A stretch of DNA of 62,856 nt, from assembly GCA_964522845.1 (NCBI GenBank), contig CAZFZQ010000001.1, positions 6,559-69,414 on the forward strand, written 5' to 3'. Each line of letters starts with the position of its first letter. Within the stretch, counting starts at the first letter, position 1. Under the pieces are notes generated by a model. That model saw only the letters and a list, made by a program, of their open reading frames with translations, was not told the DNA's origin and did no database searches. Below, piece by piece: positions 3,112 through 57,935 of this stretch. The DNA comes from an uncultured Gammaproteobacteria bacterium (GTDB taxonomy: Bacteria; Patescibacteriota; Patescibacteriia; GCA-002772895). A program made the translations under genes and the position numbers.

Positions 3112-3528
3112 TTGAATGGTTATGTTGGTTACGCAGGAGAAGGGGTGTTCGTTAATTTGTTGCCCATTTCATTTGATATTTGGTATAAAGTTAAGGTGGA
3201 ATGGCGTATTTCTGACCATAGAGAAAGATATACGATAAATGACGGTACGCCGAGTGATTGGTTCGTATCGGGCGGAATACAAAATTGGAATAATATTGAT
3301 ACGTTAAGATTAAGAGCGCCAAATGTCGGCAACGTTTCCATGTTTTGGGATACTCTGTCAAGCCCCGTCACTTCATCATATTTGAGTTCAAGTATAGCTA
3401 ATGTTTTTTCTTTTACCGGCTATGTTCCGGGCACGTACAATCTGCAAGCTACGGCCTGCGATCCTTTCAATCTTTGTTCTTCTCTAACAGCTCCGATTCA
3501 CGTGTTTGGCAGCCCCTGCCAGCCGTGA
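3112..3528 (+). CDS. hypothetical protein (138 aa, TTG start, no signal peptide)
   Basis: Supported only by the open frame. The sequence is rich in W/N/S/T, like a beta-sandwich fragment. It could be a remnant of a larger surface protein. Confidence 0.3.
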   Translation: MNGYVGYAGEGVFVNLLPISFDIWYKVKVEWRISDHRERYTINDGTPSDWFVSGGIQNWNNIDTLRLRAPNVGNVSMFWDTLSSPVTSSYLSSSIANVFSFTGYVPGTYNLQATACDPFNLCSSLTAPIHVFGSPCQP

Positions 3529-35408: not shown

Positions 35409-36503
35409 ATGCCTCCAAAAGTCGGCGTGGTGATGGTCAATTATAATAATTACGCAAAATATTTTGAAGATTTATTTTTTTCTTTAAAAAAATCCCAATA
35501 TCCTAATTGGGAAATTGTTTTTATAGACAATGCCTCAACCGACGGAAGCGTGGATTATCTGAAAGAAAAGTTTGCTCCGCAATTTCCCAACCTGACAATA
35601 ATAAAAGTTGATAAAAATTCCGGTTTTGCCACGGGAAATAATATCGGATTAAAATATTTGCAAGATAAAGATTTTGATTATGCCTACTTATTGAATTTGG
35701 ACACGACGGTCGCGCCTGATTTTTTAGAACGCGCGCTCGCGAAAGCGGGGGATGATGTCGGCTCCGTGCAGTCGCTTATTCTTTTGCATCCTTCGGTTGC
35801 AAAAGCGGGAGCGGCAATGTTATCAAATACTTTAGGCAACGCCATTCATTACCTTGGTTTTGGATATTGTTACGGATACGGCTGGGAAAAAGAAAAATGG
35901 GAAAAATACCTGGTTGATTGGCGCGTACGCGATCCGGAATTGAATATCGCCTATGGTTCAGGCGCGGGAATCCTCCTGAATATGCGCGCCCTGCGTGAAA
36001 CGGGTTTTTTTGACGACATATATTTTATGTATCACGAAGATTTGGACTTGGGCTGGCGCTTGCGGCTCGCGGGCTACAAAAATATTTTGGCGCCGGAGTC
36101 GGTGATTTATCACAAATATGAATTTTCCAAGTCCATTAAAAAATATTATTGGATGGAGCGCAACCGTTTTATCACCATGATGAAAAATTATTCAGGGCTG
36201 ACGCTGATTTTAATTTTTCCGGCGCTGGTAATAATGGAATTCGGGCTTTTGCTGTTCTCATTCCGTTCGGGATGGTGGCGGGAAAAGCTTCGCGTGTATG
36301 AATATTTTTTACATCCGAAGCGTTGGCGCGTGATTGCTTCCGGCCGGCACCGGGCGCAAAAATTGCGCAAGGCCTCGGATCGTCAAATCGCAAAACATTT
36401 TGTCGGGGAAATTTTATTTCAGGATATGGACAGTCCGCTTCTCACGAAAATTGCCAACCCGATTTTTAATTTGTATTGGAAAATTATTCAAAGATTGATA
36501 TAG
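35409..36503 (+). CDS. GT2 glycosyltransferase (rhamnosyl/galactofuranosyl-transferase-like subgroup)
   Basis: VGVVMVNYNN, IDNASTDGS, LNLDT, and YHEDLDLGWRLRLAGY with a C-terminal TM segment. Confidence 0.8.
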   Translation: MPPKVGVVMVNYNNYAKYFEDLFFSLKKSQYPNWEIVFIDNASTDGSVDYLKEKFAPQFPNLTIIKVDKNSGFATGNNIGLKYLQDKDFDYAYLLNLDTTVAPDFLERALAKAGDDVGSVQSLILLHPSVAKAGAAMLSNTLGNAIHYLGFGYCYGYGWEKEKWEKYLVDWRVRDPELNIAYGSGAGILLNMRALRETGFFDDIYFMYHEDLDLGWRLRLAGYKNILAPESVIYHKYEFSKSIKKYYWMERNRFITMMKNYSGLTLILIFPALVIMEFGLLLFSFRSGWWREKLRVYEYFLHPKRWRVIASGRHRAQKLRKASDRQIAKHFVGEILFQDMDSPLLTKIANPIFNLYWKIIQRLI

Positions 36504-36510
36504 GGGGGGG
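36503..36510 (+). repeat. G8 homopolymer between a stop codon and the repeat element
   Basis: taGGGGGGGG. The first G is the last base of the TAG stop. Confidence 0.9.
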
Positions 36511-36515
36511 CTTGA

Positions 36516-36649
36516 CCCAGTAAGACCAACTTTGGCTGTTTTTTCTCTAAATTTAGCTAAAATAAAGATTTGAGTTTGTAGAAATCAACTAACTTTTATC
36601 CAAAATCAAACTTTAAAAAAGACTTAATTTCCAAAGTTGTCTTACTGGG
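36516..36649. mobile_element. 134-bp ORF-less element with terminal inverted repeats (MITE-like), same TIR as the GIY-YIG element
   Basis: CCCAGTAAGACCAACTTTGG (36516-35) and CCAAAGTTGTCTTACTGGG (36631-49). Flanking direct repeat CTTGA (36511-15 and 36650-54). Confidence 0.5.
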
Positions 36650-36650
36650 C

Positions 36651-36679
36651 TTGACAAAAGAGCGAAAATGTGCTATACT
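36651..36679 (+). promoter_or_regulatory. sigma70 consensus-like promoter
   Basis: TTGACA (36651-56), a 17-nt spacer, TATACT (36674-79), 27 nt upstream of the ATG at 36707. Confidence 0.6.
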
Positions 36680-36706
36680 TCTCGCATATTTCAATAATGC
36701 TCAAAT

Positions 36707-37675
36707 ATGCTTAAATTAGGCAAAATAGCACTCTTTTTAGCCATATTCGCGGTTTTCGCCGCCGGTATTTTTGCATACAAAACAAAAGCCGAGGCCGCAA
36801 GCTGTGATTCCCCCTTTCAATATATAGATAAGACGGATGAGGTGTATAATCGCTTCATTTGCGATAAAAACGTCCAGGTTTATTATTTTCCCGTAGTTTC
36901 CGACGGCCGCAAATATACGATTACTTTGAAGGACTTGTCCGGCGACCAGAAGCTTTATGCCAGCCGCTATAAGGGCGAAGTTGATAAAATTGACAATCTG
37001 TTAAATTGGCGCTGCAAGGGATATCATTGCGACAGCGCGACGAGCTATGGAGATACGAAGTTTGTAACTTTTGCCGCGCCGGAAGGAGAGCGGGATTATT
37101 ACAGCTGGTTTGCGGTTTATGGCGCAACCGCCGGCCGATACCAAGTTGGCGTTTCCAATGGCGGCGTGATTCAGTTTGCCTCCGCCGACAACCCCGTCAT
37201 TTCAAATACTTCAAACATAGCTTATAATTCATACTTAACCGGCGACTTGCCTTCCATTGTTTGGAAAACCATGCCGCTCGCGAGCAATTATTCTTTTTTC
37301 AATAATTATTGGACCAGTATTTATTTTAACGACAATGATTGGTCCTACATATCGTTGCCGGATAACGGCTGGGGATGCGAACATTGTTATCGCGCGTATC
37401 GCGGAACTTTTTATTTGGACGCGGTGCCAAGCAATTTACAAATGCATTTTGCAAGCGATGACGGAGCGCAAATTTTTGTAAATGGCCAATCCATCGGCAA
37501 CTGGGGGGGGCAAAACAAGGATGGCGCCGGCGGCTGTGTGAACAATAGCAATTGCGCGGCTAATATAAATATCGGCGATATTCCACTTACCAATTTAGTG
37601 AAGGGGAAAAATGTAATTTCCGCGTTTGTTGTGAACGGCCCGCATGGTTCATATTTTAATTTTAATTTGAAATAA
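36707..37675 (+). CDS. secreted protein with beta-sandwich domains (C-terminal PA14/GLEYA-like, tentative)
   Basis: Signal peptide MLKLGKIALFLAIFAVFAAGIFAYKTKAEA. FASDDGAQIFVNGQ segment. Contains a G8 run. Confidence 0.65.
   Translation: MLKLGKIALFLAIFAVFAAGIFAYKTKAEAASCDSPFQYIDKTDEVYNRFICDKNVQVYYFPVVSDGRKYTITLKDLSGDQKLYASRYKGEVDKIDNLLNWRCKGYHCDSATSYGDTKFVTFAAPEGERDYYSWFAVYGATAGRYQVGVSNGGVIQFASADNPVISNTSNIAYNSYLTGDLPSIVWKTMPLASNYSFFNNYWTSIYFNDNDWSYISLPDNGWGCEHCYRAYRGTFYLDAVPSNLQMHFASDDGAQIFVNGQSIGNWGGQNKDGAGGCVNNSNCAANINIGDIPLTNLVKGKNVISAFVVNGPHGSYFNFNLK
37503..37510 (+). repeat. G8 homopolymer inside the secreted-protein CDS
   Basis: aac tgg ggg ggg caa (NWGGQ). Confidence 0.9.
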
Positions 37676-37707
37676 AAGGCAGTTTGGGGTAGAATCGTAT
37701 TTATATG

Positions 37708-38016
37708 CCCGGTAAGACCAACTTTGACCTCTTGCTATGTTCTACGCTTACGTGCTTTTAAGCTTGAAAGATAAAGAAAAATATATCGGCTATACTGCCG
37801 ACTTAATAAAACGCATGGAAGAACATAGCAAGGGATTGAATTTTTCCACAAAATACAGAAGACCATTGAAACTTATTTATTACGAAGCATGTCTTGATGA
37901 AAGAGATGCTAAGCAAAGAGAAAAATATCTAAAAACGACAGCTGGACGAAGATTTTTAGCCAAAAGATTAAAATATTATCTTTTTTACTGATTATTTTCA
38001 AAGTTGTCTTACCGGG
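37708..38016. mobile_element. 309-bp TIR-bounded element carrying only a GIY-YIG nuclease gene
   Basis: CCCGGTAAGACCAACTTTGA (37708-27) and TCAAAGTTGTCTTACCGGG (37998-38016). Flanking direct repeat TATG (37704-07 and 38017-20). Confidence 0.55.
37737..37991 (+). CDS. stand-alone GIY-YIG nuclease domain protein (YhbQ/COG2827-like)
   Basis: 84 aa with YAYVL...KYIGYT (GIY...YIG), R/E/N core residues, and KRLKYY at the end. Confidence 0.85.
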   Translation: MFYAYVLLSLKDKEKYIGYTADLIKRMEEHSKGLNFSTKYRRPLKLIYYEACLDERDAKQREKYLKTTAGRRFLAKRLKYYLFY

Positions 38017-38017
38017 T

Positions 38018-39163
38018 ATGAAGATTGCCCAAGTTGTTTGCACCTTTCCGCCATATCGGGGCGGGATTGGCAATTCCGCGTACAATTTAGCTAAAAATTT
38101 CGCCTTGCAGGGCGAGGAGGTCTGTGTTTTTACGCCGGACTATAATACCGCAGGCTTCCCGACCCCCTACAGCGAGGGATTTAAAATTGAGAGGATAAGA
38201 CCTCTTTTTTCGTCTGGAAACGCAGCCGTCTTGCCTCAGCTTATGTGGCGGCCAAGAGGTTTTGATGTCATCCATCTTCATCTGCCGTTTTTGGGCGCCA
38301 CGCTTCCCATCTTCTGGTTTTCTATTTTCCATCCAAAAATCAAGCTGATCGTTACTTATCATATGGATTTGGCCGGAACGGGATTGAAGAAATCTATTTT
38401 TGATTTGTATAAAAAAATTGCCCTTCCCTTAATTTTTCACCGCGCCAATAAAATTATTGTCAGTTCGTATGATTACGCGGAGAACTCCGATATTAAAAAT
38501 TTTTTAGCCAAACATAAAAATAAATTTGTGGAAATTCCTTTCGGCGTTGATGAACACAAATTTTGTCCAACGGAAAAAAACGCCGCGCTCGCGGAAAAAT
38601 ATTTTATTGACGCGGAAACTAAGACGCTTCTTTTTGTCGGGGGCTTGGACGCGGCGCATTATTTTAAGGGCCTGGATATTTTATTGCGCGCTTTAAAAAA
38701 AGTGGCGGAGTCGGGTTTGGAAAATATAAAACTTATCGTCGTGGGCGACGGGGAACTGAAATCCGAATATCAAAATCAGGCCGAGTTTTTGCATTTGCGG
38801 GATAAAATTATTTTTGCGGGAAATATTTCCGATGCCGAACTCCCGGATTATTACAATTTGGCGGACGCGTTTGTCCTGCCGTCAATTGATAAGTCCGAGG
38901 CCTTCGGCTTGGTTTTGCTTGAGGCGGCCGCTTGCGCAAAGCCCGCGATCGCGTCGGATTTGCCCGGCGTGCGCATGGTGGTAAAAAATAATCAGACCGG
39001 ATTTTTATCCAAGCCGGCTGATGTTGACGATTTAGCGGAAAAAATCAAACAATTATTTTCCGATAGCGAGATGATAAAAAAAATGGGCAAGTCCGCCCGT
39101 GAAATGGTTTTGGAAAAATATAGCTGGGAAAAAGTTGCAGAGGTTTATTTAAAAAATTTTTAA
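38018..39163 (+). CDS. GT4 (group 1) glycosyltransferase
   Basis: MKIAQVVCTFPPYRGGIGN at the N-terminus. C-terminal SEAFGLVLLEAAACAKPAIASDLPG...NNQTGFL. Confidence 0.85.
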   Translation: MKIAQVVCTFPPYRGGIGNSAYNLAKNFALQGEEVCVFTPDYNTAGFPTPYSEGFKIERIRPLFSSGNAAVLPQLMWRPRGFDVIHLHLPFLGATLPIFWFSIFHPKIKLIVTYHMDLAGTGLKKSIFDLYKKIALPLIFHRANKIIVSSYDYAENSDIKNFLAKHKNKFVEIPFGVDEHKFCPTEKNAALAEKYFIDAETKTLLFVGGLDAAHYFKGLDILLRALKKVAESGLENIKLIVVGDGELKSEYQNQAEFLHLRDKIIFAGNISDAELPDYYNLADAFVLPSIDKSEAFGLVLLEAAACAKPAIASDLPGVRMVVKNNQTGFLSKPADVDDLAEKIKQLFSDSEMIKKMGKSAREMVLEKYSWEKVAEVYLKNF

Positions 39164-49363: not shown

Positions 49364-51927
49364 ACATTCTTGTTTCCTACAATTGGTTGAAGGAATATCT
49401 GAAAACCGACTTGCCGCCGGAAGAATTTGCGGCCAAAGTTTCGCTTTGCGGGCCGTCGGTGGAGCGTATCCATCATCAGGGAACTGATTTGGATAAAATT
49501 GTTGTGGGAAAAATTTTGGGAGTGGAAAAACATCCTAATGCTGATAAATTGCGTTTGGTAGAAGTTGATATCGGCCCCACTTCGCCAAGGCTTCGCGGGA
49601 CAAGCCATAAACTCAAAGTGGTTTGTGGCGGGTCAAATTTGCAGGGCGGGATGAAAGTGGCGGTGGCGCTTTCCGGCGCAAAAATAAAATGGCACGGAGA
49701 AGGGGAGCTTGTGGAATTGAAACCAACAGAAATCCGCGGCGTGAAAAGCGAGGGAATGATCTGCGCGGCCGAAGAAATCGGGCTTGGCGCCGAGTTTCCA
49801 AAAAAAGATGAAAAAGAAATTTTAGATTTGTCGGATTTGTACGCGAAGCCGGGCACGCCCGGTAGTGAAACTTTGGTTCGCCGCTCTGGCGGCGCAAGAT
49901 TGGAATCTACCAAAGTTCTACTACCGGGCACGCCGCTTGCGGAAGCATTAAATTTGAAAGATGTTGTTTTTGATATTGAAGTGACAACCAACCGGCCGGA
50001 CATGATGTCAATTTTGGGAATTGCGCGCGAGGCGGGAACGATTTTGAAATCGCCGTTTACGATGCCGAAAATTGCGTCGCTAAAAGGTAGGGATGGCGGC
50101 GTTTCTTTGAAGGTAAAAAATGAAGAGCCGGAATTGTGCTATCGCTATCAGGCAATTGTGATAGAAGGCGTAAAAATAAAAAATTCTCCATGGTGGCTGA
50201 AACAAAAATTGGCCGCCGCGGGTACGCGCTCAATAAATAATGTCGTGGATATTACTAATTTTGTTTTGTGGGAAATGGGTCAGCCGCTGCACGCTTTTGA
50301 TTATGAAAAATTGGAAGGGAAAAATATTATTATCCGCAAGGCAAAAAAGGGCGAAAAAATAAAAGCGCTGGATGGATTGGATTATAAATTAAAAGAAGAA
50401 ATGCTCGTGATTGCCGACGGCAAAAAACCCGTGGCCATTGCCGGTGTTATGGGCGGAGAGGCGACGGGCGTGACGGATGGCACGCACACGATTGTGCTGG
50501 AAGCCGCGACTTTTGACCCCGTGTCCGTTCGCAGGACTTCGCGAGCTCTAAATTTGCGTAGCGATTCATCTAATCTATTTGAAAAAGGATTATCCACCGA
50601 GGCAACTAGCGTTGCTTTGGCGCGGGCGGCGGAACTGGTGATTCAACTTGCTGGCGGAGGAATTGCGAGCAAAGTTTTTGATTTGCGTGAAAAAGATTTT
50701 AAACCAAATGCCGTGGTCATGTCCGTGGAAAAAGCCAATAAAATAATGGGCATAGAGTTGGAGGCCGAGGCAATGGCGGATATTTTGAAACGGCTGGGAT
50801 TTGCCGTGAGCGTTAAAGGTAATGAGATAAAAGCCAAAGCGCCCTATTGGCGCGAAAATGATATGGAGATAGAAGAGGACTTGATTGAAGAAATAGCGCG
50901 GGTTTACGGCTACCATCGGTTGCCGTCCGTGCTTCCGGCCGGATCTCCTCCTTTTGGAAAAGGGAGGGACGGAGGGATGTTCCAATGGGAAAAAACCGCC
51001 AAACAGCTCGCTGCATCCGCGGGCTATGACGAAATTATTTCTTATGGAATGATTAGCAAAGGCATGATGGACGCGGCGGGCGAAAAAGACGCCATAAAGA
51101 TCGCCAATCCATTATCGGTGGATTTGGAATATATGCGCACCTGTCTTATGCCCGGACTTTTGCAAGCTGTGGCGCAAAATGAAAATAATTTTCCATCTGC
51201 AAAAATTTTTGAACTTTCCCGCGTTTACACGCCCGCCAAAAAAGGCGTCCGCCAGCTGGCGGATTTGCCGAAAGAAGAATTGCATTTTGCGGGGATAAAT
51301 TATGGCAAGTCGTCCAAGGGTGAATTATTTTATGAAGCCAAGGGTTTTGCGGAAATGATTTTGGAAAAATTTGGCATTTTTTCGTCTGTCATTCCCGCGG
51401 AGGCGGGAATCCAGTTCCATGAATCCGACGATAAAAATTTTCATCCCGCGCGCTCCGTTGATATATATTTCAAAAAAGATTGGATTGGCGCTTATGGCGA
51501 AGTGCACCCCATAACGGCTAAAAATTTTGGCCTATCCTGCGAAGCCGGACTTTTCTATTTTGATTTTGACGCCCTGCTCGCTCATGCCAAATCGCACAAA
51601 GCATACGCGCCCATTCCGGAATTTCCGGGCGTGAAGCGCGACATTTCTTTTATTGTTGATAAAAAAATGGAATACGAAAAAATAAAACAAACCGTGGCGT
51701 CGGCCCACGCGCTCGTCGCCGAAGTGGAGCCGTTTGATGTGTATGAACCATCCTTCGCTAAAGCTTCGGATGGCAGGGGGCAAATTCCTATGGGTAAGAA
51801 AAGTATTGCGCTTCATATTCTTTTCCAATCTGCCAATCGCACATTGGAAGCCAAAGAAGCGGACGAGGCATTTGAAAAAATAGTTTCCGCATTGAAAAAG
51901 GATTTTGGCGCGGAAATCAGAATGTGA
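49360..51927 (+). CDS. pheT: phenylalanine--tRNA ligase beta subunit
   Basis: MNILVSYNWLKEYL start, tRNA-binding domain, B3/4 and B5 regions, TTNRPD. 855 aa including several repeat-derived insertions. Confidence 0.95.
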   Translation: MNILVSYNWLKEYLKTDLPPEEFAAKVSLCGPSVERIHHQGTDLDKIVVGKILGVEKHPNADKLRLVEVDIGPTSPRLRGTSHKLKVVCGGSNLQGGMKVAVALSGAKIKWHGEGELVELKPTEIRGVKSEGMICAAEEIGLGAEFPKKDEKEILDLSDLYAKPGTPGSETLVRRSGGARLESTKVLLPGTPLAEALNLKDVVFDIEVTTNRPDMMSILGIAREAGTILKSPFTMPKIASLKGRDGGVSLKVKNEEPELCYRYQAIVIEGVKIKNSPWWLKQKLAAAGTRSINNVVDITNFVLWEMGQPLHAFDYEKLEGKNIIIRKAKKGEKIKALDGLDYKLKEEMLVIADGKKPVAIAGVMGGEATGVTDGTHTIVLEAATFDPVSVRRTSRALNLRSDSSNLFEKGLSTEATSVALARAAELVIQLAGGGIASKVFDLREKDFKPNAVVMSVEKANKIMGIELEAEAMADILKRLGFAVSVKGNEIKAKAPYWRENDMEIEEDLIEEIARVYGYHRLPSVLPAGSPPFGKGRDGGMFQWEKTAKQLAASAGYDEIISYGMISKGMMDAAGEKDAIKIANPLSVDLEYMRTCLMPGLLQAVAQNENNFPSAKIFELSRVYTPAKKGVRQLADLPKEELHFAGINYGKSSKGELFYEAKGFAEMILEKFGIFSSVIPAEAGIQFHESDDKNFHPARSVDIYFKKDWIGAYGEVHPITAKNFGLSCEAGLFYFDFDALLAHAKSHKAYAPIPEFPGVKRDISFIVDKKMEYEKIKQTVASAHALVAEVEPFDVYEPSFAKASDGRGQIPMGKKSIALHILFQSANRTLEAKEADEAFEKIVSALKKDFGAEIRM
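49858..49928. mobile_element. 71-bp TIR element inserted in frame in pheT (75 nt with the duplicated CACG)
   Basis: CCCGGTAGTGAAACTTTGG (49858-76) and CCAAAGTTCTACTACCGGG (49910-28). CACG flanks it at 49854-57 and 49929-32. It encodes PGSETLVRRSGGARLESTKVLLPGT. Confidence 0.55.
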
Positions 51928-52230: not shown

Positions 52231-52264
52231 TGTGTCATCCCGGACTACGATCCGGGATCCAGTT
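52231..52264 (+). repeat. palindromic repeat TGTCATCCCGGA..TCCGGGATCCAGTT
   Basis: 8-bp stem ATCCCGGA/TCCGGGAT. The same family is copied inside pheT at 51385-51416. Confidence 0.65.
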
Positions 52265-54398: not shown

Positions 54399-57300
54399 AT
54401 GTTTATTCATCTTCATTGCCACTCTCATTACTCACTCTTAGACGGTCTCCCAAAGATACCGGATCTTGTTAATCGTGCCAAGGAATTGGGTATGACGAGT
54501 TTGGCGTTGACCGATCATGGTGTGATGTATGGCATTATTGATTTTTATAAAGCGTGTAAGAAAGCGGGGATTAAGCCCATCTTGGGCGTTGAGGCATACG
54601 TGGCGCCGCGCAAACATACGGACAAAGAATCCGGCGTGGACACCAAGCCATATCACTTGGTTTTGCTCGCGAAAAATGAAACCGGCTATAAAAATCTTTT
54701 GAAACTCACTTCCATCGCGCATTTGGATGGCTACTATTATAAACCGCGCGTGGATAAAGAATTGCTAAAACAATACAGCGAGGGGATTATTGCCACCTCC
54801 GCTTGTTTGAATGGCGAAGTGGCGCGCCAGCTTTTATCCGGCAATTACGAAAACGCGGAAAATTCTCTCCGCGAATACAAAGAAATTTTTGGCGAAGGAA
54901 ATTTTTATTTGGAAGTCCAACCGCAAACTTCAACAGAAAATAACGAACAGCAAATTGTGAACGATCGTTTGATTGAATTGGCAAGAAAAACCAATACGCC
55001 GCTCGTGGCCACCAAAGACGTGCATTATGTTTTGAAAGAAGATGCCGAGGCGCAAGACGCGCTTCTCTGTATTCAAACCGGTACGCAACTCGCCAATACT
55101 GACCGGCTTACCATGCGCGCGATTGATTGTTCGTTTTCTTCGGAAGAAGAAATGCGCGCTTTTTTTCCAAATTTGCCCGAGGCCATAGACAACACTGTAA
55201 AAATTGCCGAGGCCTGCAATGTGGAGCTCGTCCTCGGCACAAACATTTTGCCAAAATTTGTCGTGCCGTCCGGCACGACGGACGTGGAATATTTGAGCGA
55301 GCTGTGCGAAATTGGCCTTGCTAAACGCTATAAAGAAATTACAAAAGAAATTCGTGATCGTTTGGAGTGGGAGCTTTCCATTATTAACCGCATGGGGTTT
55401 GCGTCTTATTTTTTAATCGTTGACGATTTAATTAAATTTGCCAAAAATCAAGGCATTGTCGTTGGCCCGGGCAGGGGATCGGCCGCCGGTTCCATTATTT
55501 CTTATGTTTTAGGCATCACGGATTTGGACCCGATTCATTACAAATTACTTTTTGAAAGATTTTTGAATCCCGATCGCATTTCCATGCCTGATATTGATCT
55601 GGATTTTTCCGACACGCGCCGGCATGAAGTTATTGAATACGTGCAGGAAAAATATGGCAAGGATCGGGTCGCCGGCATCATTACTTTTGGAACCATGATG
55701 GCGCGCGCCGTACTGCGCGACGTAGGCAGGGTGATGGGAATGCCTTACACGGATGTTGACCGCATCGCCAAAATGATTCCGCCTCCGGTGCAGGGCAAGC
55801 ACACTCCGCTTTCAAAACATATCCAAGAAATTACGGAGCTTAGAGAATTGTACGAAAAAAATGGCGAGATCCGGCAGCTTTTTGATTTATCCGTAAAGTT
55901 GGAAGGCACGGTGCGCCATGCTTCCCAGCACGCTTGCGGAGTTATTATCGGTGACCGGCCGCTTACCGAACACGCGCCTTTGCAAAAAGCTCAAGGCGGA
56001 GATGTTGAAATTGTGTCGCAATATTCTCTGCATCCGATTGAAGACGTTGGTCCGTTAAAAATTGATTTTTTGGGTTTGGCAAATCTTTCTATTATTCAAG
56101 ACACGATAGAAATCGCGCAAGCTGTGGAAAAAAATTTGGGCCGCGAAATAAAAATAAATATTGAAGAAATTCCCCTAAACGACAAAAAAACATTTCAACT
56201 TTTAGCGCGCGCGGAAACGACTGGTGTGTTTCAATTGGAATCCGCGGGAATGAAACGATACATCAAAGAATTGAAACCAAATAATATTGAAGATATTATT
56301 GCCATGGTCGCGCTTTACCGTCCGGGGCCGATGCAGTTTATTGACAGTTTTATTAAACGCAAACACGGCAAGGAAAGAATTACTTACGCGCATCCGTCAA
56401 TGGAAAACGCCACTAAGAACACTTATGGCATGACCATCTATCAGGAGCAAGTCATGCAAATTTCCAAAGATATGGCGGGATTTACCGGCGGCGAGGCGGA
56501 CACTTTGCGCAAAGCCATCGGTAAAAAAATTCCGGAATTAATGGCAAAAATGAGAGCTAAGTTTGTTGAAGGGTCGGTAAAGAACGGCGTGGAAAAAAAA
56601 CTGGCTGAAGAAATTTTTACGCAATTTGAAGATTTTGCCGCCTACTCGTTCAATCGTTCGCACGCCGCCTGTTACGCCATGATTGCTTACCGCACGGCCT
56701 ACCTCAAAGCGCGCTGGCCGGATTGTTTTATGGCCGCGCTCATGAATGCCGACTCCGGCGATTTGGATAGAATTACAATTGAAGTTGAAGAATGCAAATC
56801 GTTGGGACTGGAAGTTTTGCCGCCGGACATCAACGAATCGTTTCCTCGTTTTGCCGTGGTGCCCGGAACTAATAAAATCCGTTTCGGGCTGGAAGCGGTG
56901 AAAAATATCGGATCGGAGATCGCGAAAAATATTATTGCCGAGCGCAAAGAGAATGGAAAATTTGATTCGCTGGAAAATTTGCTGGAACGCGTGCAGGATA
57001 AAAATTTGAATAAAAAATCTTTGGAGTCGTTTATAAAATGCGGAGCGCTGGATTCTTTCGGCGAGCGGGGAATGATGCTTGCCAATGTGCAAAAAATGCT
57101 TGATTTCCATCGCGATGTAAAGACCGCGGCGAAACCGCAAAATTCGCTTTTTGGCGGATCGGGTATTGCGCTTAGCCGCGCGATTTTGCGATTGGAGCCC
57201 GCGCCTGAGGCGGAATTCAAACAAAAATTGGCTTGGGAAAAAGAACTTTTGGGGCTTTATATTTCCGCCCATCCTTTTTCCCATCTCGCGCCGTATGCTA

Positions 57301-57935
57301 AAGATTTGGCCACCCCGTCTTCGGATCTTAAAAATTTGCGCGAAGGGGCGTGGACTGTGGTCTGCGGCGTGGTTACCATCACAAAACAAATCCGTACCAA
57401 AAAAAATAATGAGCTGATGTGTTTTGCCACGCTGGAAGATGCCAAAGGCGCGTTTGAAGTTTTGGTTTTCCCCGGAGTTTTTGAAAAAACAAAAGATTTG
57501 TGGCAGGCGGACAGGGCGGTTGTGGTCAAAGGCAGAGTTTCTTTCAAAGAAGGGGAGACTAAGATTTTAGCAAGCAAGGCTGCGGAATTTTTTCCTGAAA
57601 AGATTGAAGAATTGAAGAAAGAATTCGCTTCTAAAGACACTATCGGATTTCCGACTTCCGATAGTGGTAAATTTAGCCAATTCGGAAGTCGGAAATCCGA
57701 TAGTGAGAAGGCCGATAATGGCGAAACCATGAAGCAGTTTTTTAATGGCAATCTGATAATGAAGGATAATGCAATTTATATTACGGTTCCGGCAAAGATG
57801 ACCAAAATGCACGCCGATACCATAAAAGAATATTTACAAAAACACCCGGGGGGCACCCAAGTGTTTTTGCGCGTGGCGGAGTCCGAGAAACTCATTCCCA
57901 CGACTTATAAGGTTGATGAAAAAAAGTTTATTTAA
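54399..57935 (+). CDS. dnaE: DNA polymerase III alpha subunit
   Basis: PHP domain FIHLHCHSHYSLLDG and polymerase core motifs (PDIDLDF, GLLKIDFLGL-like). 1178 aa. Confidence 0.95.
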   Translation: MFIHLHCHSHYSLLDGLPKIPDLVNRAKELGMTSLALTDHGVMYGIIDFYKACKKAGIKPILGVEAYVAPRKHTDKESGVDTKPYHLVLLAKNETGYKNLLKLTSIAHLDGYYYKPRVDKELLKQYSEGIIATSACLNGEVARQLLSGNYENAENSLREYKEIFGEGNFYLEVQPQTSTENNEQQIVNDRLIELARKTNTPLVATKDVHYVLKEDAEAQDALLCIQTGTQLANTDRLTMRAIDCSFSSEEEMRAFFPNLPEAIDNTVKIAEACNVELVLGTNILPKFVVPSGTTDVEYLSELCEIGLAKRYKEITKEIRDRLEWELSIINRMGFASYFLIVDDLIKFAKNQGIVVGPGRGSAAGSIISYVLGITDLDPIHYKLLFERFLNPDRISMPDIDLDFSDTRRHEVIEYVQEKYGKDRVAGIITFGTMMARAVLRDVGRVMGMPYTDVDRIAKMIPPPVQGKHTPLSKHIQEITELRELYEKNGEIRQLFDLSVKLEGTVRHASQHACGVIIGDRPLTEHAPLQKAQGGDVEIVSQYSLHPIEDVGPLKIDFLGLANLSIIQDTIEIAQAVEKNLGREIKINIEEIPLNDKKTFQLLARAETTGVFQLESAGMKRYIKELKPNNIEDIIAMVALYRPGPMQFIDSFIKRKHGKERITYAHPSMENATKNTYGMTIYQEQVMQISKDMAGFTGGEADTLRKAIGKKIPELMAKMRAKFVEGSVKNGVEKKLAEEIFTQFEDFAAYSFNRSHAACYAMIAYRTAYLKARWPDCFMAALMNADSGDLDRITIEVEECKSLGLEVLPPDINESFPRFAVVPGTNKIRFGLEAVKNIGSEIAKNIIAERKENGKFDSLENLLERVQDKNLNKKSLESFIKCGALDSFGERGMMLANVQKMLDFHRDVKTAAKPQNSLFGGSGIALSRAILRLEPAPEAEFKQKLAWEKELLGLYISAHPFSHLAPYAKDLATPSSDLKNLREGAWTVVCGVVTITKQIRTKKNNELMCFATLEDAKGAFEVLVFPGVFEKTKDLWQADRAVVVKGRVSFKEGETKILASKAAEFFPEKIEELKKEFASKDTIGFPTSDSGKFSQFGSRKSDSEKADNGETMKQFFNGNLIMKDNAIYITVPAKMTKMHADTIKEYLQKHPGGTQVFLRVAESEKLIPTTYKVDEKKFI
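57638..57705. repeat. perfect 23-nt inverted repeat (68-nt palindromic unit) inside the dnaE CDS
   Basis: CACTATCGGATTTCCGACTTCCG (57638-60) and CGGAAGTCGGAAATCCGATAGTG (57683-705). Confidence 0.85.

Follow-up and report, generated by a model that had tools for sequence, protein, structure and literature searches.

A family of very small mobile elements in Patescibacteria with short inverted ends and an Ssn-related GIY-YIG nuclease gene

In a 62,856-nt stretch of contig CAZFZQ010000001.1 (the window), three short segments, elements A, B, and C, are bounded by inverted repeats and flanked by direct duplications, and one of them, B, encodes a small GIY-YIG nuclease. Together with their relatives, they almost certainly constitute a real mobile element family, related as a variant to the Ssn system of nucleases and hairpin repeats, large, and apparently undescribed. 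The self-contained form, represented by B, measures about 290 to 350 bp and consists of two inverted ends of 18 to 25 nt starting with CCCNGTA and a single gene for an Ssn-type GIY-YIG protein of 84 to 100 amino acids. A and C are gene-less derivatives, i.e., miniature inverted-repeat transposable elements (MITEs), which have kept the ends around a variable core that folds into hairpins. We consider it probable that A, B, and C represent one superfamily of very small DNA transposons of Patescibacteria (candidate phyla radiation, CPR), mobilized by the nuclease through recognition of a stem in single-stranded DNA (ssDNA). The window has a G+C content of 40.8%, and its PheT protein is closest to the PheT of Patescibacteria metagenome-assembled genomes (MAGs), e.g., Uhrbacteria and Magasanikbacteria.

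Element B (37708-38016) is 309 nt long and bounded by terminal inverted repeats (TIRs), with a left end at 37708-37727 (CCCGGTAAGACCAACTTTGA, including an extra C at 37719) and a right end at 37998-38016 (TCAAAGTTGTCTTACCGGG). Here and below, the features of the window are given on the plus strand, except A and C, to which no strand is assigned. The sole open reading frame (ORF) of B (37737-37991) encodes the nuclease of 84 amino acids, and its stop codon lies 25 nt ahead of the element end. B is flanked by TATG on the left (37704-37707, containing an ATG at 37705-37707) and on the right (38017-38020), where the duplication provides the ATG (38018) of a GT4 glycosyltransferase ORF (38018-39163). 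Element A (36516-36649) is an ORF-free miniature of 134 nt with ends of the B type, including the extra C; its left arm is CCCAGTAAGACCAACTTTGG (from 36516) and its right arm CCAAAGTTGTCTTACTGGG (to 36649), and its CTTGA duplications are found at 36511-36515 and at 36650-36654, the latter overlapping the -35 hexamer of a promoter match. Element C (49858-49928) is a miniature of 71 nt that lies in frame in pheT, adding 25 amino acids, between CACG duplications at 49854-49857 and 49929-49932. Its arms (CCCGGTAGTGAAACTTTGG and CCCGGTAGTAGAACTTTGG) belong to a second end subtype, related to that of A and B but distinct from it. The coordinates and sequences of the three elements, as well as their 4- to 5-nt direct duplications (CTTGA, TATG, and CACG, each present on both sides), had been given in an earlier note on this DNA, and all of them matched on rereading the window. 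That note assigned one TIR to all three loci, which holds for A and B, while C has its own subtype: of 20 aligned positions, 11 are identical between the left arm of B and the end of C. When up to three mismatches were allowed, the arm motif was found three times in the window versus 0.04 times expected from shuffles, and none of 100 shuffles reached three.

Relatives of these elements recur in other genomes and metagenomes. A scan of one genome per species (596 Gb) with an exact 18-base TIR pattern returned 38 loci. In 24 of them the match was one arm of a pair, with the arms 74 to 202 nt apart and matching 4-nt flanks, giving 25 elements, and all of these loci came from MAGs that are Patescibacteria or compatible with them (Saccharibacteria, Parcubacteria, Doudna- and Yanofskybacteria). 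A search for the TIR in related genomes, proposed as a check in the earlier note, therefore recovered it in many MAGs of this group as paired elements with 4-nt duplications. The 14 unpaired matches, mostly from non-CPR organisms (Planctomycetaceae, Pseudoalteromonas, and others), were set aside as chance, given an estimate of tens of matches expected in 596 Gb. A metagenome scan with the 84-amino-acid protein gave 80 loci at 59 to 88% identity. When the 150 nt upstream of each gene were aligned to the reverse complement of the 200 nt downstream, about 60 of the 79 testable GIY-YIG genes showed inverted ends of 15 to 25 nt, starting a few bases 5' of the ORF and ending at or just past its stop codon. 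All these ends start with CCC[ACG]GTA, and the remainder varies by protein lineage. A stricter search of all the retrieved DNA yielded 86 nonredundant elements at 79 independent sites, of which 47 were gene bearing (41 independent sites; protein identity of 59 to 88%) and 39 were gene-less. The latter, 70 to 205 nt long, have the same kind of ends as the gene-bearing ones, in agreement with the idea that the gene-less A and C are MITE-like nonautonomous derivatives. The ends codiverge with the nuclease protein, and element sizes fall into three classes only (70 to 105, 135 to 205, and 282 to 348 nt). No end pair encloses 400 to 4,000 nt in about 0.57 Mb of element-rich CPR DNA (genome fragments), and none of the 86 nonredundant elements encloses a gene other than that of the GIY-YIG protein.

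The GIY-YIG paralogs are thus bounded by TIRs as a rule, which was another of the proposed checks. About 15 genes lack CCCNGTA ends, and they are mostly located beside other inverted repeats or local hairpins or in tRNA arrays. Several of those in L104, L113, L116, L092, and L068 immediately adjoin tRNA or tmRNA genes or occupy an rRNA-operon spacer, and GC-rich local hairpins (CCCGCCCGCC...GGCGGGCGGG) are found to one side of some of them. Insertion in rRNA genes was seen in 0 of 20 loci scanned. Regarding possible vehicles, 50,697 phage records and 72,556 plasmids contained no close relative, and 2.9 million viral contigs contained one relative. In L020 (5299-5338), two identical 148-nt MITEs stand head to tail with only CATA between them (..GCTCTACCGGG CATA CCCGGTAAGAC..), beside a run of N; this doublet is either a true tandem sharing one duplication or an assembly artifact, and the junction of the two MITEs forms a local hairpin.

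The flanks and copies of the elements provide direct evidence for movement. An exact 4-nt duplication was found at 59 of the 86 elements, and 65 had a duplication of at least 4 nt, versus 2 of 258 when the same test was applied to flanks shifted by 20 to 40 nt (P = 8e−49). Contig Ga0209542_10000341 (114.7 kb) carries three copies that, with a fourth one at L060, are about 97 to 99% identical exactly from CCCAGTAAC to GTTACTGGG and lie in unrelated flanks, with duplications TATG, ATG, TGAGA, and TATG. Such near-identical copies in unrelated flanks on one contig indicate recent movement. For C, the solved PheT structures omit about 25 residues of the query that match the element, and precisely this segment is missing from the closest PheT homolog (P0121, from contig L121; 85% identical in the alignment). 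At the empty site, L121 reads AAGCCGGGCGCGTTG where the window has AAGCCGGGCACG, the 71 nt, and CACGCCG, so that the 75-nt difference corresponds to the element plus one 4-nt duplication copy. The search for an empty site in a sister genome, also suggested in the earlier note, was therefore successful for C. Insertion sequences (ISs) and TIR transposons are operationally recognized by inverted ends, a duplication of fixed length, near-identical copies in unrelated flanks, and an empty site, all of which were found here. A transposase of a recognized class (DDE, DEDD, HUH, serine, tyrosine, or Cas1) was not found in the elements, the only ORF being that of the GIY-YIG protein. These data also show that the family tolerates in-frame insertion in essential genes.

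The product of the B ORF matches the Pfam GIY-YIG family (PF01541; E = 9.9e−14), its sole Pfam match above the cutoff, and with its 84 amino acids it resembles the Ssn proteins, which consist of a single GIY-YIG domain of about 90 to 100 residues. Catalytic residues are conserved: among 45 homologs, Y5, Y16, G18, R26, H30, E50, and E62 are invariant or nearly so, and R61 and K66 are kept as well. The AlphaFold (AF2) model shows one compact domain (pLDDT of 94.8), whose nearest PDB folds are UPF0213 BH0048 (1ZG2) and the nuclease domain of Slx1 (TM-score of 0.6 to 0.69, probability of 1.0), with I-TevI matching far more weakly. The best PDB sequence matches are UPF0213 BH0048 (E = 4e−4, 29% identity) and EF2693 (E = 1e−3). 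No NCBIfam model scored above its cutoff, a group I intron endonuclease model giving a weak match below it (E = 0.006). With regard to the YhbQ/COG2827 type, to which the protein was previously assigned, UPF0213 is among the nearest folds, and the pairwise sequence match is stronger to an Ssn-type homolog. The homologs form 5,252 clusters at 50% identity for E values up to 1e−3, and 838 for E values up to 1e−10. P0301 is a protein of 655 amino acids with two GIY-YIG domains in frame, presumably a type I restriction specificity (HsdS) subunit by our own reading, and P0245 and P0253 have tandemly duplicated GIY-YIG units. These three suggest that complete gene-bearing elements have been inserted in frame and that copies can stand in tandem.

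The Ssn family (CDD cd10448) comprises single-domain GIY-YIG proteins of about 94 amino acids whose genes are flanked by NTS/SRM hairpin repeats (Chenal et al. 2025, Nat Commun, PMC11893778). These proteins bind the hairpin only as ssDNA, cut a small number of nucleotides upstream, within the variable flank, and tolerate hairpins that are split or whose loop contains extra DNA, and the characterized relatives do not bind RNA (PMC11893778). Chenal et al. noted the IS-like layout of NTS-ssnA-NTS and proposed a domestication, and they did not show duplications, MITEs, or transposition (PMC11893778). The statement in the earlier note that small stand-alone GIY-YIG proteins have no established mobility role is out of date with respect to a link to repeats. 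The window protein is 42% identical over 66 amino acids (E = 4e−13) to an SRM-flanked homolog encoded in a Rhizobium plasmid (L122), the C-terminal third being different, and hhalign of the family profile against this protein gave a probability of 97.6%. The Rhizobium locus served as a positive control, and its flanking hairpins match the published SRM pattern (HGTCWY..YYVSBRH..WNVSBRG..RNCYNB). The ends of B do not match this pattern, and their single arms are not self-complementary.

Hairpins of the Ssn-related type were found in the window and next to a relative. The window has two SRM-like hairpins versus 0.065 expected. One (51389-51411, TCATTCCCGCGGAGGCGGGAATC) is an SRM/NTS-like hairpin in frame in pheT, where it reads VIPAEAGIQ, and is not part of A, B, or C; the other (52233-52262, TGTCATCCCGGACTACGATCCGGGATCCAG) is intergenic and adjoins a terminator-like hairpin. 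The latter matches the strict published pattern, and the former was detected with a looser GTCAT-plus-hairpin search, as were the canonical CGTCAT hairpins located 3' of the gene in L118, a relative with 59% identity. By eye, the 51389-51411 hairpin agrees with the Neisseria NTS consensus at almost all positions (PMC11893778). It is absent from the corresponding site of L121, which has a similar one elsewhere in pheT (L121, around 3303-3333), indicating that SRM-like hairpins also come and go. In a more distant clade (L124 to L142; about 50% identity to the window protein), local hairpins such as CGCGTAAAAGAC-TTC-GTCTCACGCG flank the gene, and they resemble two CPR ends (CCCAGTAAGAC ... GTCTTACTGGG) joined by a tiny loop. 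The GIY-YIG genes of this clade have fragments of tyrosine-recombinase and IS91-type Y2 transposase genes on one or both sides, which looks like insertion into other mobile elements. The comparison of these arrangements suggests a series, from canonical hairpins on both sides of the gene, through local hairpins made of abutted ends, to the split stem of CPR with the gene or MITE core in its loop.

The CPR elements thus share with Ssn a single-domain GIY-YIG gene of about 90 codons placed between inverted repeats that also occur as many orphan copies. They differ in that each end is a plain half-site and the stem arises solely by pairing of one end with the other, the intervening gene or MITE core forming the loop, and in having 4-nt duplications, a multicopy unit, MITEs, empty sites, and start-codon capture, none of which has been reported for Ssn. 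The proposal of a distinct nuclease-driven class of mobile element can accordingly be kept in part: there is a mobile family with TIRs, duplications, and MITEs, but it is related to Ssn, and that the nuclease drives it is something we infer.

The ends have structural features in common. Folding of the elements as ssDNA, which had been proposed as a check, gave strong structures for the whole short elements (z scores of −4.7 to −8.5), including A (−25.6 kcal/mol, z = −5.1) and C (−28.7 kcal/mol, z = −8.5). A common architecture, made of a terminal stem of 7 bp, a 4x4 internal loop, and a further stem of 9 bp, is found in 11 short MITEs from three subtypes, and compensatory changes affect 8 of 16 pairs. 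An irregularity 7 to 12 nt from the tip, either a GA/AG swap or a 1-nt bulge, is common and is absent in several lineages (L059, L089, and L081). The left arms of A and B carry one extra C (GACCAAC versus GACAAC), which the earlier note read as a conserved 1-nt bulge. The extra C is real but confined to one lineage, made of A, B, L039, L026, L035, and L013, and the arms of C differ by a GA/AG swap instead. L039, an 88%-identical relative of B, has the same ends and a TATG duplication, and L026 and L035 are MITEs of MAG JAHINX01 with the A/B end type, extra C included. The end subtype of C brackets GIY-YIG genes in L107 and L088.

The gene-bearing form overwhelmingly occupies start codons of host genes with the same orientation. 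Of 47 such elements, 35 are placed precisely at the ATG of a downstream ORF that is co-oriented; this ATG is supplied by the duplication, whose sequence is TATG in 21 cases and CATA in none (P = 1e−6). In 28 of 37 cases, versus one-third expected (P = 2e−7), the reading frame set by the ATG of the left flank runs through the inverted end into that of the nuclease. This results in read-through N termini such as MPSNKTSQ (ATG followed by CCC AGT AAC ...), with the pattern MPSNxTS..., and an MP.. N-terminal extension is present in about one-third of the database homologs. Some members depend on the borrowed start because they have no internal Met. The left duplicated ATG, together with the promoter and start signals of the host, would drive the nuclease, usually in frame through the inverted end, and the right duplicated ATG would restore the start of the host gene. 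A -10-like hexamer is found 4 to 9 nt before the ATG at 19 of 34 insertion sites versus 51 of 206 background ORFs, whose start calls are crude (P = 4e−4), and a Shine-Dalgarno-like motif is present at only 5 of the 34. The background consists of long ORFs of CPR loci L039 to L118 and the window; by the same crude start calls, about 11% of them have a Shine-Dalgarno-like motif and 57% have a T before the ATG. These figures fit with leaderless or non-Shine-Dalgarno initiation being widespread in these loci.

Both A and B are placed at promoter-like sequences. The left ATG of B (37705-37707), presumed to be the original start codon of the glycosyltransferase gene, is preceded at a distance of 9 nt by the end of such a sequence (TTGAAA-17-TAGAAT, 37667-37695); because of this spacing, the start of that gene is probably leaderless or nearly so. 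Element A sits in the -35 box of a promoter that matches at 11 of 12 positions (TTGACA-17-TATACT, 36651-36679), has a TG before its -10 box, and lies upstream of the gene starting at 36707, and the right CTTGA copy leaves this promoter intact. Start codons are also occupied by 10 of the 39 MITEs. Two-ended AAGAC/AGAGC MITEs at start codons had the AAGAC end toward the gene in five of five cases by our own reading of a small sample, which hints that the mechanism, and not selection on the ORF, determines how they are oriented. Within B, the 13 nt around the start codon of the nuclease (37731-37743, CTTGCTATGTTCT) are perfectly complementary to a stretch of the ORF (37820-37832, AGAACATAGCAAG), and pairing in the transcript could mask the start codon and limit expression of the nuclease.

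We propose that the Ssn-type nuclease is the mobilizing enzyme of the element. Like the characterized Ssn relatives, it would act on a stem in ssDNA, here the two paired ends, and it would cut a few nucleotides (about 4) outside this stem in the flank, on each strand, a placement that fits the 4-nt duplication. Host ligase and repair functions would then finish the joining. MITEs would be mobilized in trans by a nuclease whose ends match their own, that of B in the case of A and that of an unseen paralog in the case of C. Cargo, the term used for the nuclease in the earlier note, is probably the wrong word, since this is the only gene ever found between these ends and is more likely to be the driver.

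Several points weigh against this proposal. The link of the nuclease to movement is inferred. Covariation of the arms is expected of any transposon ends and does not prove that a hairpin is the substrate. No filled/empty polymorphism was found at A or B, the only other contigs encoding the neighboring 322-amino-acid protein (L119 and L120) being 100% identical to the window and carrying B. MITEs and gene-bearing elements of the same contig often differ in end subtype. The start-codon bias could reflect survivorship in gene-dense genomes rather than targeting. For the copy of the window, the capture in frame fails: the ORF of B starts at an ATG of its own, and the left ATG is out of frame with it (32-nt offset, to which the extra C contributes). 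With regard to promoter and co-orientation, the model holds for this copy. To our knowledge, GIY-YIG enzymes hydrolyze DNA and do not join strands, which leaves the chemistry of insertion unexplained. Finally, the one characterized Ssn protein, that of Neisseria, is a host-level modulator of transformation and not a transposase (PMC11893778).

These points bear on the choice between explanations. As the DNA examined consists of genome fragments, a separate transposase acting in trans could be encoded elsewhere. The elements would then belong to a conventional transposon, e.g., a DDE IS making 4-nt duplications, that moves both the MITEs and the GIY-YIG unit, with the nuclease as a passenger or selfish stabilizer. 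Inverted ends with fixed-length duplications are the classic DDE signature, most MITE families elsewhere are moved in trans, and the differing end subtypes on one contig also count in favor of this reading, as does the strand transfer that GIY-YIG enzymes are not known to perform. Against this stand the absence of any end pair around 400 to 4,000 nt in the element-rich CPR DNA and the presence of the same single gene at 41 independent sites down to 59% identity, with its start and stop overlapping the ends; the preservation of so tight an arrangement makes a casual passenger unlikely. Moreover, homologs of the nuclease have been proven to recognize their own flanking repeats (PMC11893778). We therefore regard a conventional transposon as unlikely. 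We consider it improbable that this is a domesticated host system of the Ssn/SRM type, in which the nuclease polices incoming or replicating ssDNA at the repeats and these spread by recombination or slippage rather than by transposition of a unit. The homology to Ssn, the SRM-like hairpins of the window, and the domestication favored by Chenal et al. (PMC11893778) are in line with such a system, but the nuclease gene is multicopy and its near-identical copies have unrelated flanks, the insertions show precise 4-nt duplications and one clean empty site, and to sit within the reading frame of pheT or at the start codons of unrelated genes is the behavior of a parasite. A host function and mobility can also coexist.

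GIY-YIG is the classic fold of homing endonucleases, and the weak similarity to group I intron endonucleases mentioned above could suggest a free-standing enzyme that cuts empty alleles and is copied by homologous repair, the ends being incidental regulatory or terminator hairpins. This is very improbable, since the insertion sites share no homology beyond 4 nt and have target duplications, the protein has 84 amino acids and no DNA-binding domain, its fold is nearer to Slx1 and UPF0213 than to I-TevI, and gene-less copies have the same ends and duplications. We accordingly did not place the protein among the GIY-YIG homing endonucleases, given its single domain and diverse duplicated targets. 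Even less probable is that the repeats act primarily as RNA, as structured RNAs or RNase III processing stems, with the duplications as part of a conserved motif. The elements are cotranscribed with host genes, their paired ends would make a long RNA stem, and the internal 13-nt repeat of B can sequester the start codon; however, the four duplicated nucleotides vary by site, presence and absence are seen at the DNA level, and characterized Ssn relatives do not bind RNA (PMC11893778). No Rfam family matched in the whole window at gathering thresholds, and a permissive scan of 36400-38100 gave only hairpin matches at chance level. RNA processing may still account for the tolerance of insertions.

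The family can also be compared with other known systems. REPIN-RAYT and IS200/IS605 elements also have a small nuclease or transposase gene between hairpin-forming inverted repeats and abundant nonautonomous doublets, and they are recognized as single-stranded hairpins, the form that we propose here. Their enzymes are HUH Y1 proteins that form covalent intermediates and produce no target duplication, unlike the GIY-YIG protein, 4-nt duplication, and size of about 300 bp found here; IS200, at about 700 bp, is itself a very small IS. RAYT genes are single copy and vertically inherited, whereas the present nuclease gene is multicopy. We therefore rejected membership in these groups on the basis of the GIY-YIG fold and the 4-nt duplication. 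Rickettsia palindromic elements (RPEs) and the Correia elements of Neisseria are likewise short and have inverted ends, and RPEs are known for in-frame insertion into protein genes, as seen for C in pheT. Their mobilizing enzyme is unknown or DDE, their sequences are unrelated, and no linked GIY-YIG gene has been described for them. Slx1 and UPF0213/YhbQ (COG2827) provide the nearest solved folds, and Slx1 cuts branched and flap DNA; yet the sequence similarity to UPF0213 is weak, Slx1 has a RING domain and the partner Slx4, and neither is known to be flanked by repeats. I-TevI, the Seg proteins, and Penelope-like retroelements use the same catalytic fold in a mobile element, and Penelope insertions also have short duplications from staggered nicks, but these systems have DNA-binding or reverse-transcriptase domains, lack inverted ends, and move by homing or reverse transcription. 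Tsurumaki et al. (2024, PMC11270868) described GIY-YIG ORFs within insertion sequences, other than introns, of rRNA genes in CPR bacteria and did not report ends, duplications, or MITEs. In the literature searched (full text, most subscription journals being outside its coverage), we found no GIY-YIG element with inverted ends and duplications and no MITEs in CPR bacteria.

Two other in-frame features were observed in the window. In pheT, a GC-rich insert of about 27 nt (49576-49606, CCCACTTCGCCAAGGCTTCGCGGGACAAGCC, reading ..TSPRLRGTS..) is absent from the closest homolog (L121/P0121) and from the solved PheT structures, and it represents a different small type of insertion. At 57638-57705, an inverted repeat with perfect arms of 24 nt, separated by 20 nt (CACTATCGGATTTCCGACTTCCGA ... 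TCGGAAGTCGGAAATCCGATAGTG), lies in frame in an ORF of 1,178 amino acids (54399-57935) and possibly represents another family of in-frame palindromic insertions.

A bolder version of our proposal can be put forward as a tentative possibility, somewhat less secure than the proposal itself. Under it, the Ssn-type GIY-YIG nuclease would be a true equivalent of a transposase and a further class of prokaryotic transposition enzyme. The elements would probably be the smallest autonomous transposons known (about 300 bp and one protein of 84 to 100 amino acids), inserting on the start codons of leaderless genes, where the target DNA may be made single stranded by the open promoter complex, and taking over the promoter and ATG of the host. 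They would also be the mobile ancestors of the orphan hairpin repeats (dRS3/NTS/SRM) of Neisseria, Wolbachia, Rickettsia, and others. Ever since the description of dRS3, it has been asked how such repeats multiply in Neisseria and intracellular symbionts, and the elements offer a concrete and testable origin for the hairpin repeats associated with Ssn.

If the nuclease does move the element, a hydrolytic GIY-YIG enzyme would join the short list of drivers of DNA transposition, and the lower size limit of a self-contained transposon would be set anew. The family accounts for in-frame extra segments in essential CPR proteins such as PheT and for the many small CPR genes annotated as "putative endonuclease" (the 5,252 clusters mentioned above), and possibly for the non-intron GIY-YIG insertions in CPR rRNA genes. 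For annotation, it implies that many database proteins starting with MPSNxTS are fusions of a host ATG to an inverted end. Each pair of end and nuclease is a candidate sequence-specific cutter of single-stranded DNA, and start-codon capture represents a compact case of a parasite using the expression signals of its host.

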